From the NCBI RefSeq assembly GCF_056712565.1, contig NZ_CM160072.1: a DNA stretch of 64,000 bases. The stretch is one strand, 5' to 3'. Made by a program: the position numbers. How positions within the stretch are numbered: position 1 is the stretch's first letter; each line of letters opens with the position of its first letter. Shown one piece after another: positions 46,801 through 49,800 of this stretch.

Positions 46801-49800
46801 TTTTCCTGCATAGATTTAACCGGCCATCTGAGATGGCCGACAGGTTAACATAATTACAGCCATTTAGGGCCACGCGCTCAGCCCGCGGGTGAAAACGCAT
46901 CTATCACCTTGTGATCGACACCTTCATTCTCCCCCGCCAGTTCGGCACTGAGCTTCGCCATAAACTCGACTAAAAATTGCGCGTTGTGCTGCGCCAGCTG
47001 CTTGCCTCTTGCGGTTTGCATGGTTTGCGGTAGCTTCAGCAACTTAGTCTGGAAATGATCCAGCGCGTAGCGTTTATCATCAAGCGGACGATGCTGTGCG
47101 AACGGATCTTCACCATCAAACAGCGCCACGCCCAATGCCCCTGAAACGGCAAACACGCGCGCCAGGCCAATCGCCCCCAGGGCTTCCAGCCGATCCGCAT
47201 CCTGGACGATTTTAGCTTCCGTTGTTAAGGGGGCGATTTGCGCGCTGAAACTGTGAGCGGCAATGGCATGACAAACGGCCTCGATTTTCTCCGCCGGAAA
47301 TTGCACGAACTCTTCACGGAGCAGGCGACGCGTCTCTTCTGCCGCCAGGATTGAAGAACGCTGCCGTTGTGGATGATCTTTCGCCAGGCTCACAATATCG
47401 TGAAAATAACAGGCGGTTAAAATCACCAGCATATCGACATCGTCATCTGCCGCCAGCTTCTGTGCCGTAGCCCAGACGCGGCGAAAATGACATACGTCAT
47501 GGGCCGCGTCCTGGTGCTGGTGATGGTTTTTTAACCAGTTTTCGAACTGTGCCTGCCAGTGTTGTAAGTCCATACGCGCTCCGTTGCCAAAGAGTCGCAA
47601 CCTTAGCAGTTTTTATTCATAGCGTCTGCTGCGTGCGGGACGAGGTCGGGTGTACCAGGCTATGCTGCCTAACAATGCCCCGACCAGAGCCATAAATAAA
47701 AATCCGACCAGTGCCCCTAACCACTTTCCCGCGGTAGATCCTAAATCGCTTTCAAATCCCGACACCGGGGCATCAGGGATCCGACTCATCACCCAGATGT
47801 AACGCGCCATTGCCCAGACGAAATAGCCACACCATGTATAGAATGCCCACAAAGCCAATTTGCCGCCAGGGCTGCGAGAGAGTCTCTCTTCCATCTTTGT
47901 CGAACCGTATTCCATTTTGAGATAACCCGGAAAATTCAGACTTAGAACCATTATGTGATAAAAATCACATTTTTCCACATTGGATGAGCCAGTCAAGACT
48001 CAATCATTTTTTGAACAAATAGATAAATTTTGCGCAACGGCAGTGAATACAGGAAAAATCGTTTTGAGCGATTTTATTTATCTTTGATATCGGCTTTATT
48101 AATTCATTTAATCAATATATTAGCACTGATTACAATTATACCTTTTTATTATTCTGTGTCATGATGCTTCCGTTATTAGCCTTTTATCGTCTTGTTTATA
48201 TTTTTTGGGCCGGCATGATGCCGGCTTTTTTTATGCCTTCATTAATGTGCGCGAGATCACGCCAGCCGTTTAGCGCAACAATCATTGACACTCCCTATCT
48301 TTTCAATCAACTCATAACATATTGATATACATACATAATATTCATGAATATTTATATTCGGAATTCATAACTATGAATTATATTAAATAGATTAGAAACA
48401 TTTTGAAATCTTTTAAATACATTTGTTACATGTAATCTTTAAAATAAAATGAACTTCATAGAATAGTATCCAAATGTGCTTTTTTTTGGATAACGGCACT
48501 TATTGATATATTCATGAAGATTATAATCACAAGGGAATACATAATGAAAAGAAAAGTTCTGGCAATGCTGGTCCCGGCGTTATTAGTTGCTGGCGCAGCA
48601 AATGCGGCTGAAATTTATAATAAAGATGGCAATAAAGTTGATTTCTACGGCAAGATGGTTGGCGAACGCATCTGGTCAAATACTGATGATAATAACAGCG
48701 AAAACGAAGATACCTCCTATGCTCGTTTCGGTGTTAAAGGTGAAACCCAAATCACCAGCGAACTGACTGGTTTCGGTCAGTTTGAATACAACCTCGACGC
48801 CAGCAAACCTGAAGGTGAAAACCAGGAAAAAACCCGTTTAACCTTCGCCGGTTTGAAATATAACGAGTTAGGATCATTTGACTATGGCCGTAACTACGGT
48901 GTTGCTTATGATGCCGCAGCTTATACCGATATGTTAGTTGAATGGGGTGGCGATTCCTGGGCTTCCGCTGACAACTTCATGAATGGTCGTACCAACGGTG
49001 TTGCAACCTACCGTAACTATGATTTCTTTGGCCTGGTTGATGGTCTTGATTTTGCGATTCAGTACCAAGGCAAAAACAGCAACCGTAGCACTAAGAAACA
49101 AAATGGTGACGGCTATGCGTTGTCTGTAGACTATAACATCAATGGTTTTGGTATCGTTGGTGCATATAGCAAATCTGATCGCACCAACGATCAAGTTGCC
49201 GATGGAAACGGTTCAAATGCTGAACTGTGGTCATTGGCTGCAAAGTATGACGCGAACAATGTCTACGCAGTTGTAATGTACGGTGAAACTCGTAATATGA
49301 CTCCGGGTTCTATTGATACAGGTGTTGCCGATCGAGAAGGCAATACAATAATGCGTGATCAACTTATCAATGAAACCCAGAACTTTGAAGCGGTTGTTCA
49401 GTATCAATTCGACTTTGGTCTGCGTCCGTCCTTAGGTTATGTGTATTCTAAAGGTAAAGATATCAAAGGTGTACCTGGACATAGATATGTTGACGCTGAC
49501 CGTGTGAACTACATTGAAGTTGGTACCTGGTACTACTTCAATAAGAACATGAACGTTTATACTGCATACAAATTCAACATGCTGGATAAAGATGACGCCG
49601 CCATTACTGGCGCAGCAGCTGATGACCAGTTTGCAGTTGGTATCGTCTACCAGTTCTAATCAGCCAACGCGCCGCGGCGTGTTACTGTAAAACTTAACAC
49701 TAGCCTGAGTTCGTCCCTCATCGAACTCAGGCTTTTTTATTGGCATTTCATCTCGATCTGCGGCACACGCAATTGCCAAAGCATATCGATACAGCACCTT

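Follow-up and report, generated by a model that had tools for sequence, protein, structure and literature searches.

RseX is a 91-nt RNA of Escherichia coli K-12 that down-regulates OmpA and OmpC and has been detected only in hns mutants; its native expression in wild-type K-12 is undetectable, and it was missed for years (PMC8313858). Its sigma-70 promoter is supported by 5' RACE (Douchin 2006, as cited in a passage of PMC8313858), and RNA-seq of hns mutants found "RseX and surrounding areas" to be up-regulated, with H-NS/StpA acting as repressors of rseX (PMC8313858). The neighbouring K-12 porin gene, yedS, is a pseudogene (b4496, formerly b1964-b1966) which has been equated with ompS1 (PMC2731931). 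In Salmonella, ompS1 encodes a quiescent porin that is repressed by H-NS/StpA and induced by LeuO (PMC4264507). The existence of rseX beside an intact porin at the yedS locus is ordinary and already described, and the value of the present analysis is practical rather than conceptual, the workings of RseX and of general porins being those already known.

The window, by which we mean the whole 64,000-nucleotide stretch analysed, belongs to the chromosome of E. coli ATCC 11775, the type strain, and the gene order from RefSeq annotation is dcm-yedJ-drpB-rseX-porin-hchA. We regard it as very probable that this is the drpB-rseX-yedS-hchA locus in its undamaged state, carrying a quiescent porin, RseX and a barrel drawn from recombining families. 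The features of the locus are as follows.

47613..47894, minus strand: drpB (yedR), the divergent neighbour (RefSeq annotation and PMC7648144).
48131..48136, plus strand: probable -10 hexamer of rseX, TACAAT, read from the sequence, 7 nt 5' of the 5' end annotated in K-12.
48143..48232, plus strand: rseX, gene of an Hfq-binding sRNA of about 90 nt (Rfam RF01401 and alignment to K-12 b4603).
48171..48190, plus strand: core segment of RseX with the highest conservation, GTTATTAGCCTTTTATCGTC, nearly invariant in the alignment with E. fergusonii.
48207..48232, plus strand: intrinsic terminator of rseX, a 9-bp GC-rich stem (48207-48227) followed by T7 (terminator scan and Rfam structure line).
48233..48543, plus strand: AT-rich regulatory region and porin leader, 21.5-37% G+C (composition and sliding identity).
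48374..48446, plus strand: three tandem units of about 27-30 nt each (repeat search, families D1 and D2).
48423..48450, plus strand: candidate porin promoter, TTGTTA-16-TAAAAT, 9/12 matches (consensus scan).
48544..49659, plus strand: intact porin gene at the yedS (ompS1) locus, with a 371-aa precursor and a 350-aa mature protein (ORF, RefSeq CDS, Pfam Porin_1 and model).
48544..48606, plus strand: porin signal peptide, 21 aa, with probable cleavage between ANA and AE (allele alignment).
48618..49640 (approximate), plus strand: hypervariable barrel cassette (sliding identity, identity matrices and model secondary structure).
49702..49739, plus strand: intrinsic terminator of the porin gene, a 12-bp stem (49702-49733) followed by a T-run (terminator scan).
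49807..49819: poly-C tract, in which any variation of length may be real or an assembly error.

An earlier note on this DNA had proposed a probable rseX immediately upstream of the porin, on the strength of a strong orphan terminator and a plausible -10 upstream of it, and the proposal proved exact to the base. Positions 48143-48232 (+) match Rfam RF01401 across model positions 1-94 of 94 with 97.7 bits (E = 2e-13; gathering score 50 bits), and when aligned to K-12 rseX (b4603, L002:4650-4740) they are identical apart from a 3' tail that is one T shorter (T7 instead of T8). Position, the 90-nt sequence, terminator and -10 region are all alike in the two strains. As in the K-12 annotation, rseX of ATCC 11775 lies between drpB/yedR and yedS and shares its strand with yedS, and the divergent drpB fixes the synteny of the locus. 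The orphan terminator is that of rseX; terminator-like sites number five in the region against 1.5 ± 1.3 in shuffles. The -10 hexamer stands without a good -35, because of which it is absent from the promoter scan list, the scan having found no plus-strand consensus promoter for rseX. In the proposed mechanism, RseX would be an Hfq-binding sRNA of about 90 nt made from a weak sigma-70 promoter and ended by its strong intrinsic terminator. H-NS/StpA would hold it off, as in K-12, and when made it would pair with the ompA, ompC, fimB and ihfB mRNAs, so that their expression falls.

One could argue that "rseX" is merely DNA of the drpB-yedS intergenic region that serves as a terminator or binds protein, its RNA being without a physiological role. 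The undetectable native RNA of wild-type K-12 (PMC8313858) agrees with this, as do the absence of an rseX annotation, both in the RefSeq record of ATCC 11775 and by PGAP in RefSeq genomes, and a near-consensus minus-strand promoter (11/12 matches, 48162..48135, consensus scan) that overlaps the 5' end of rseX. Yet the RNA has been detected on published Northern blots of hns mutants, and targets of it have been validated (PMC8313858). Among 5426 complete E. coli genomes, 4879 have the rseX region (about 10% are without it), and in 4559 of the 4879 it is 95-100% conserved, next to a hypervariable porin gene. In E. fergusonii, despite diverged surrounding DNA, the 20-nt core is kept and the terminator stem has a different sequence with its pairing maintained. 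We therefore find it most improbable that the element lacks a role as RNA. Since the core at 48171-48190 is near-invariant even in E. fergusonii, it is likely to be an interaction segment, a function suggested by its conservation. Outside Escherichia, no Rfam match to rseX was obtained in the loci examined.

Two further candidates in this region were set aside. The minus-strand promoter at 48162..48135 was rejected as the promoter of drpB, because published mapping puts the drpB promoter near its gene, in the interval from the old GTG-1 codon to ATG-22 (PMC7648144). Small ORFs at 48030-48164 and 48161-48325, which run over rseX, are unsupported; SNP density climbs just past 48253.

The porin gene is complete. 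Its ORF (48544-49659, +) encodes 371 aa with no stop and no frameshift, and the same CDS appears in the RefSeq record of ATCC 11775 as "porin" (WP_000824356.1), so that the claim of a full-length porin with a signal peptide and its own terminator at the yedS position is upheld. Pfam PF00267 (Porin_1) matches residues 27-371 with 392.8 bits (gathering score 23.7; E = 2e-117). The signal peptide is identical in 8/8 E. coli alleles compared, its cleavage site being assigned by analogy with OmpC and OmpF, and the terminator is conserved across allele families. The product has the marks of a general porin, namely a Sec signal peptide, a C-terminal aromatic residue (Phe, in ...VYQF) and a modelled beta-barrel with internal loop L3. 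The structure model, of moderate confidence (pLDDT 76) and with loops L1 and L2 poorly modelled, superposes on OmpK35 with TM 0.91 and on OmpF with TM 0.87. The OmpF constriction residues K16, R42, K80, R82, R132, D113, E117 and D121 are all conserved. The protein would accordingly be expected to form a classical trimeric, 16-stranded general-diffusion porin, encoded about 310 bp 3' of rseX.

The description of this protein as an OmpC-family porin holds loosely, at the level of Porin_1, and fails at the level of the subfamily. Its score of 415.1 bits against the OmpC subfamily model NF007841 is below the cut-off of 484, whereas K-12-type yedS alleles pass with 520-538 bits. The best of three NCBIfam models is the OmpF equivalog NF007446, with 447.7 bits under a cut-off of 583, and the PhoE equivalog NF007544 gives 412.4 bits against 599. 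Among solved relatives, the closest are OmpK35 of Klebsiella pneumoniae (484 bits, 62% identity), which is the best match in both sequence and fold and has the L3 motif VEWGGD in common with the window porin, and E. coli OmpF (54-60% identity), with which it shares every constriction residue checked, K80 included. It differs from both in occupying another chromosomal locus.

By position, the gene is yedS, because it sits between drpB/rseX and hchA in the annotation of both ATCC 11775 and K-12. Locus, signal peptide, last 7 codons, terminator and most of the leader are alike in the two strains, and the flanks of the barrel are 95-100% identical (alignment and sliding identity). By K-12 sequence type it is not YedS. 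The window barrel has 59-61% protein identity to YedS of K-12 and its intact K-12-type alleles (59-60% to repaired K-12 YedS) and about 70% or lower DNA identity with many indels, a distance similar to that between OmpF and OmpC, whereas the intact allele L003 is 95% identical to repaired K-12 YedS. K-12 yedS has two lesions, TAG as codon 162 and the loss of 1 nt near codon 219. The window porin has neither, as had been anticipated, but the gene cannot be read as K-12 yedS minus its lesions, its barrel belonging to a different allele family at about 60% amino-acid identity. For this reason, comparing lesion by lesion makes sense only with intact alleles of the K-12 type, L003 being an example. 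Intact alleles of that type are 395-404 aa long, carry the PGAP name "porin OmpC" and have long insertions in L4, L5 and L7 which the window protein does not have; its own loop L6 is about 14 residues longer than in a 357-aa sister allele. When relatives of the K-12-type family beyond E. coli were sought in a database, the matches listed were saturated with E. coli and Shigella entries.

At least four barrel families occupy the yedS locus among 5426 complete E. coli genomes (1626, 1662, 1140 and 366 genomes), and the window family accounts for about 1626 of them. According to identity matrices, the families differ by 32-41% in protein. Identity changes sharply at about 48618 and about 49640, and the barrel blocks that carry indels fall on loops L1, L2 and L4-L8, which are predicted by the model to lie at the surface. 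In the 387-aa family, the constriction itself is altered (R42E, R82K and E117V). Strain C 237-04 (L005) has flanks near-identical to those of the window and a barrel from another family, while the barrel of E. coli 042 departs from that of the window at about 3 positions in about 1100 nt and its upstream region (48000-48160) is about 20% divergent. Such mosaics are signs that homologous recombination has swapped deeply divergent barrels, set in near-identical flanks, between E. coli lineages. We tentatively propose, as a possibility that falls short of being the favoured one, that yedS is a porin cassette with several alleles whose polymorphism is maintained by selection, its barrel families being as unlike each other as OmpF and OmpC; it would recombine within its signal-peptide and terminator flanks and stay linked to an invariant RseX, which would lower OmpC and OmpA upon derepression of the locus. 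Phages, colicins or antibodies could exert such selection. If this were true, E. coli lineages would hold functionally different "reserve" pores, and an OmpF/OmpK35-like constriction in one family against the altered residues of the 387-aa family could change antibiotic entry, differences that the annotation labels "porin" or "OmpC" conceal.

The window barrel might instead be a recent import from another genus, for example an OmpF-like gene of Klebsiella, Citrobacter or Enterobacter that replaced the "true" E. coli yedS. The porin is indeed nearer to its counterparts in Citrobacter/Enterobacter (75-77% identity) and E. fergusonii (82-84%) than to other E. coli families (60-68%), and its G+C content of 40-46% is below that of flanking genes. 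On the other hand, E. fergusonii, Citrobacter and Enterobacter carry this family at the corresponding place, these foreign relatives occupying the same yedA-vsr-dcm-yedJ-porin position. The window family therefore looks like the orthologue shared by vertical descent, and it is the K-12 (OmpC-like) family that looks like the odd one out. In addition, even the closest relatives outside Escherichia reach only about 75% identity, which leaves no recent donor visible, and the family is present in about 1626/5426 genomes. Recent import is thus unlikely. A separate idea, that the E. coli families arose by differential loss of tandem paralogues, was rejected. The E. fergusonii locus does contain two porin genes in tandem, but the second is NmpC-like (89% identical to the porin at 23405 of the window, 62% to K-12-type YedS) and does not explain the families.

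As for expression, the 640-bp intergenic region (47900-48540) has 21.5-37% G+C against about 53% in flanking genes, and the leader includes a more variable patch at about 48258-48378 (sliding identity). The suggestion that this AT-rich leader points to silencing fits the published H-NS/StpA repression of rseX with its surroundings and of Salmonella ompS1. We infer that H-NS may coat the AT-rich promoter region and thereby keep the porin gene quiescent in laboratory conditions, as in Salmonella ompS1, expression following only upon relief of silencing. Analogy makes quiescence in the laboratory the most likely state of the window porin. The likeness to Salmonella OmpS1, which is repressed by H-NS/StpA and induced by LeuO and OmpR, consists of the long AT-rich upstream region and probable quiescence, the equation of yedS with ompS1 being one of literature name only. 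The single porin promoter candidate is the site at 48423..48450, and 9/12 promoter-like sites in this DNA are at chance level, with no enrichment over shuffles. Two of the three tandem units at 48374-48446 end in GAAACAT or GTTACAT, which we take to resemble OmpR half-sites, as a lead only.

The porin could even be permanently silent, and a stronger version of this view holds that the intact ORF is a dead, never-expressed relic which, unlike that of K-12, has had too little time to decay. K-12 yedS already carries a nonsense codon and a frameshift, the rseX region is missing from about 10% of complete genomes, in one genome an IS3 stands in place of the entire rseX-yedS segment, and native RseX went undetected for years (PMC8313858). 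We nevertheless judge a relic improbable, as thousands of genomes carry intact alleles, with all four families represented, syntenic orthologues are retained in other genera, and the 371-aa allele shows only 1-4 residue differences among ATCC 11775, ST131, H3 and 042. The window porin also keeps all its constriction residues, signal peptide and C-terminal Phe. Moreover, a passage of PMC4048246 reports a clinical isolate expressing functional YedS, and a porin with "50% homology" to K-12 YedS has been detected by proteomics in a published STEC strain.

In the micF-ompC and micC-ompN pairs, the gene of a porin-repressing sRNA lies beside a different porin gene, an arrangement that suggests reciprocal control. 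The rseX-porin pair likewise joins a porin-repressing sRNA to a different porin gene; it differs in that rseX and the porin are in tandem, whereas those pairs are divergent. If both genes were derepressed together, RseX would lower OmpC and OmpA while the spare porin rises, in the manner of a micF-ompC or micC-ompN porin swap. Direct action of RseX on the neighbouring porin was rejected, as simple duplex prediction placed three RseX segments at background level against the 5' region of the porin (-100..+60); only the pairing of RseX segment 30-62 with ompC was slightly low (z = -1.9). Direct MicF control through the ribosome-binding region of the porin was likewise rejected. For MicF nt 1-35 and the -100..+60 region of the porin, RNAduplex computed -11.5 kcal/mol, which is at background relative to 32 gene starts of the window (z = +0.8), while the MicF-ompF control was clear (-27.4 kcal/mol, z = -4.4). 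Because neither RNA was predicted to pair above background, a direct sRNA link to the window allele is unsupported. Regulation of YedS by MicF was reportedly observed by Warner and colleagues, and could be indirect or act elsewhere.

The locus may bear on antibiotic permeability. Once expressed, the porin would let in small hydrophilic solutes, beta-lactams and carbapenems among them, by an additional path. With this porin and an NmpC-like one as spares in the strain, carbapenems or cephalosporins could still enter through porins despite loss of OmpC and OmpF, should silencing be relieved. The connection of intact YedS with carbapenem susceptibility, raised earlier for this gene, has indeed been published (Warner et al. 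2013, AAC 57:1935, as paraphrased in a passage of PMC4048246). The published permeability data concern an unspecified YedS allele, from which the window family may differ. Since the families differ by about 40% in sequence, results from one "YedS" are not transferable to another, and the altered constriction residues of one allele family add further caution. In RefSeq genomes of non-K-12 E. coli, rseX is unannotated and yedS-locus porins are inconsistently named "porin" or "porin OmpC", as a result of which genome-based calls of resistance or porin loss can miscount porins. The NmpC-like gene at 23405-24487 is also intact, encoding 360 aa with 90% identity to fragment 1 of the K-12 nmpC pseudogene, and the window thus holds two accessory general porins, as the earlier note had stated.

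At 47900–49800 (1.9 kb), the DNA matches, at 100% identity, the chromosome of Escherichia coli ATCC 11775 (= DSM 30083; NZ_CP033092.2), whose RefSeq annotation runs yedA, vsr, dcm, yedJ, drpB, an unnamed 'porin', hchA, hprS and hprR. K-12 MG1655 has a matching order, and its drpB–hchA interval holds rseX (b4603) and the yedS pseudogene (b4496). An earlier note, made from the sequence alone, had proposed an intact yedS porin here with a probable rseX gene upstream; all of its features were located where it had placed them, and the finding is real and was correctly interpreted. 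Both rseX and the porin are already known entities. What we add is the rseX gene, absent from this strain's RefSeq annotation, and the assignment of the porin to one of four families that share the locus. G+C content is 21.5–37% at 47900–48540 and 40–46% in the porin gene; the flanking genes have about 53%. The region holds 5 terminator-like sites, compared with 1.5 ± 1.3 in shuffled sequences. Its features are as follows.

48131–48136, plus strand: probable rseX -10 element TACAAT; the K-12 5' end lies 7 nt downstream
48143–48232, plus strand: rseX
48207–48227, plus strand: rseX terminator hairpin, followed by T7 (terminator scan)
48374–48446, leader: tandem repeat of three 27–30-nt units, two ending in GAAACAT or GTTACAT, which we take to resemble OmpR sites; a weak lead
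48423–48450, leader: promoter-like site with 9/12 matches (consensus scan); a weak lead
8 nt before the porin ATG, plus strand: Shine-Dalgarno-like AAGGGA (read from the sequence)
48544–49659, plus strand: porin gene
49702–49733, plus strand: porin terminator hairpin with T-run (terminator scan)

The Rfam model of rseX (RF01401) gives a full-length match with 97.7 bits (gathering score 50) and E = 2e-13, on exactly the nucleotides that the earlier note had named. From 48000 to 48253 the window and K-12 are identical except for a single indel, one T of the rseX terminator tail (T7 vs T8). The plus-strand promoter was not listed by the consensus scan because its -35 is poor; 5' RACE supports a sigma-70 promoter (PMC8313858). 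The K-12 RseX RNA, 91 nt long, reduces OmpA and OmpC (PMC7648144; PMC8313858) and also targets fimB and ihfB; it is undetectable in the wild type and gives a Northern signal only without H-NS, StpA being a backup repressor (PMC8313858). Of 5426 complete E. coli genomes, 4879 contain the rseX region, most with 95–99% identity, and Rfam matches adjoin every porin allele family examined. Despite a score far above the Rfam threshold, PGAP annotates no rseX in the sampled E. coli genomes, where no features lie under the match. E. fergusonii also has a match (68.8 bits); the syntenic loci examined in Citrobacter and Enterobacter gave none. In the E. fergusonii alignment, a 20-nt core (window 48171–48190) is nearly invariant and the terminator stem differs in sequence with its pairing kept, as one would expect if the RNA is functional.

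Opposite rseX lies a near-consensus sigma-70 promoter on the minus strand (48135–48162; ATGACA-16-TATAAT, 11/12 matches), oriented towards drpB. Its -10 overlaps that of rseX, TACAATTATA having the form of a -10 on either strand. It may be a spurious promoter, AT-rich as this DNA is, or it may hinder transcription of rseX. The site is not kept in E. fergusonii, and mapping placed the drpB promoter far closer to drpB (PMC7648144).

The porin ORF, which the earlier note had described as intact with its own terminator, is uninterrupted, corresponds to the annotated RefSeq CDS and encodes 371 aa ending in VYQF. Several lines of evidence agree in making it a general-diffusion porin of the classical kind. 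The Pfam Porin_1 match scores 392.8 bits, and an AlphaFold model from 31 input sequences (pLDDT 76, pTM 0.72) takes the form of a beta-barrel whose internal loop contains a helix. Each of the OmpF constriction residues examined is kept (K16, R42, K80, R82, R132, Y106, D113, E117, G119, G120 and D121). The label 'OmpC-family' proved only loosely right: none of the curated NCBI models is passed (OmpF 447.7, cut-off 583; OmpC 415.1, 484; PhoE 412.4, 599), and OmpK35 and OmpF are nearer. By sequence, the closest solved structures are OmpK35 (484 bits) and Enterobacter aerogenes Omp35, then OmpF, with OmpC-type porins later; Foldseek likewise ranks OmpK35 first (62% identity, TM 0.91), before OmpF (54%) and OmpC (49–50%). 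The L3 motif, VEWGGD, is that of OmpK35 and differs from PEFGGD.

The K-12 pseudogene carries a TAG at codon 162 (GFFG*VDG) and lacks one nucleotide near codon 219. Both lesions are absent here, but judged by its sequence the gene is not K-12 yedS made whole, as its barrel has diverged. The ends (signal peptide, first few mature codons, last seven codons and terminator) are 95–100% identical to K-12 yedS, whereas DNA identity over about 48618–49640 is mostly 30–75% with many indels. Protein identity to conceptually repaired K-12 YedS is 59–60%, against 60% to OmpF, 57% to OmpC and 65% between OmpF and OmpC. The porin's family is OmpF/OmpK35-like and distinct from that of K-12.

At this position, sampled genomes carry intact genes of 371, 357, 352, 387, 395, 397 and 404 aa, which form four families.

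Porin families at the yedS locus (genomes among 5426 with barrel-only query coverage of at least 80%)
Window family: 371 and 357 aa; 1626 genomes
K-12 family: 395–404 aa; 1662 genomes; passes the OmpC subfamily cut-off
352-aa family: 352 aa; 1140 genomes
387-aa family: 387 aa; 366 genomes

Together these make 4794, not far from the 4879 genomes with the locus. Within the window family, 902 genomes match the window at 95% identity or more, ST131 strains and EAEC 042 among them. Indel-containing blocks between families fall in the modelled loops L1, L2 and L4–L8, and the most conserved barrel block covers the modelled L3 end and strand 6. The eight open-access papers naming yedS, porin and E. 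coli do not describe this allele structure. In the 387-aa family (L009, a 387-aa allele, 1646–2809), R42E, R82K and E117V (OmpF numbering) alter otherwise invariant constriction positions, which suggests a pore of altered charge and selectivity.

Two strains suggest that barrels have been exchanged. E. coli 042 (L026) differs from the window at about 3 of about 1100 nt in the barrel and at ~20% of positions upstream of rseX (48000–48160), whereas C 237-04 (O2:K2:H1; L005) has almost identical flanks and a barrel of the 352-aa family, the outcome expected of homologous recombination in conserved flanks. We would only tentatively, and with less than even confidence, regard the locus as a recombining, selectively maintained porin cassette whose families differ in function. 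The nearest relatives of the window family outside E. coli, in E. fergusonii (82–84%), Citrobacter (75–77%) and Enterobacter hormaechei (75–77%), occupy the same yedA-vsr-dcm-yedJ(-drpB)-porin position, so that this family looks like the vertically shared orthologue and the K-12 family like the divergent one. Just upstream of rseX (48000–48160), the window, 042 and Z0117EC0005 (L008) represent at least two haplotypes ~20% apart; the 042 rseX is nearly identical to the window's. The yedR–yedS intergenic region has served others as a host-source marker (PMC11267920).

Silencing is the porin's most likely state, because the 310 bp upstream are AT-rich, H-NS data cover rseX 'and surrounding areas' (PMC8313858), and yedS has been named as ompS1 (PMC2731931), which in Salmonella is H-NS/StpA-repressed and LeuO-induced (PMC4264507). 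Simple duplex predictions, in which a MicF–ompF control worked, did not support pairing of MicF or RseX with the porin 5' region. The membrane proteome of an STEC strain contained a porin described as having '50% homology' to K-12 YedS. Warner et al. 2013, as relayed by a citing paper (PMC4048246), reported a clinical isolate that resists carbapenems, carries a marR mutation and has a functional yedS.

Mobile elements have reshaped the locus in some strains. IS3 replaces the whole rseX–yedS segment in S1-CAM-01-C (L010 4001–5800), where no Rfam rseX match was found; in Z0117EC0005 (L008 4387–5230), an IS5-family element directly follows the porin gene, and the sequence on the hchA side is unrelated. 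In UTME-13 (L006 714–995), drpB is flagged as a pseudogene with an internal stop. Between the porin terminator and hchA, the window has 13 C at 49807–49819, the sole such run in 64 kb (0.01 expected), compared with C10 in the same strain's RefSeq assembly, C6 in 042 and CCCTGCCCCTCC in other strains. Either this homopolymer really is unstable in length or the run is an artefact of sequencing or assembly; its length shows that NZ_CP033092.2 and the window do not agree at every base.

The earlier note was right to count two accessory general porins in the window. The second (23405–24487), labelled 'porin OmpC' by PGAP, is an intact 360-aa NmpC-like protein. It shares 90% identity with fragment 1 of K-12 nmpC, which IS5 disrupts, and 52% with the porin at the yedS locus. 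It adjoins ybcM, ybcL, emrE (DLP12-type genes) and yedK, surroundings that look like a DLP12-like lambdoid prophage remnant at a chromosomal site other than in K-12. In E. fergusonii (L016 4001–6772), rseX is followed by a tandem pair of porin genes, one of the yedS-locus type (361 aa, 84% identical to the window's) and one of the NmpC type (369 aa, 89% identical to the porin at 23405).
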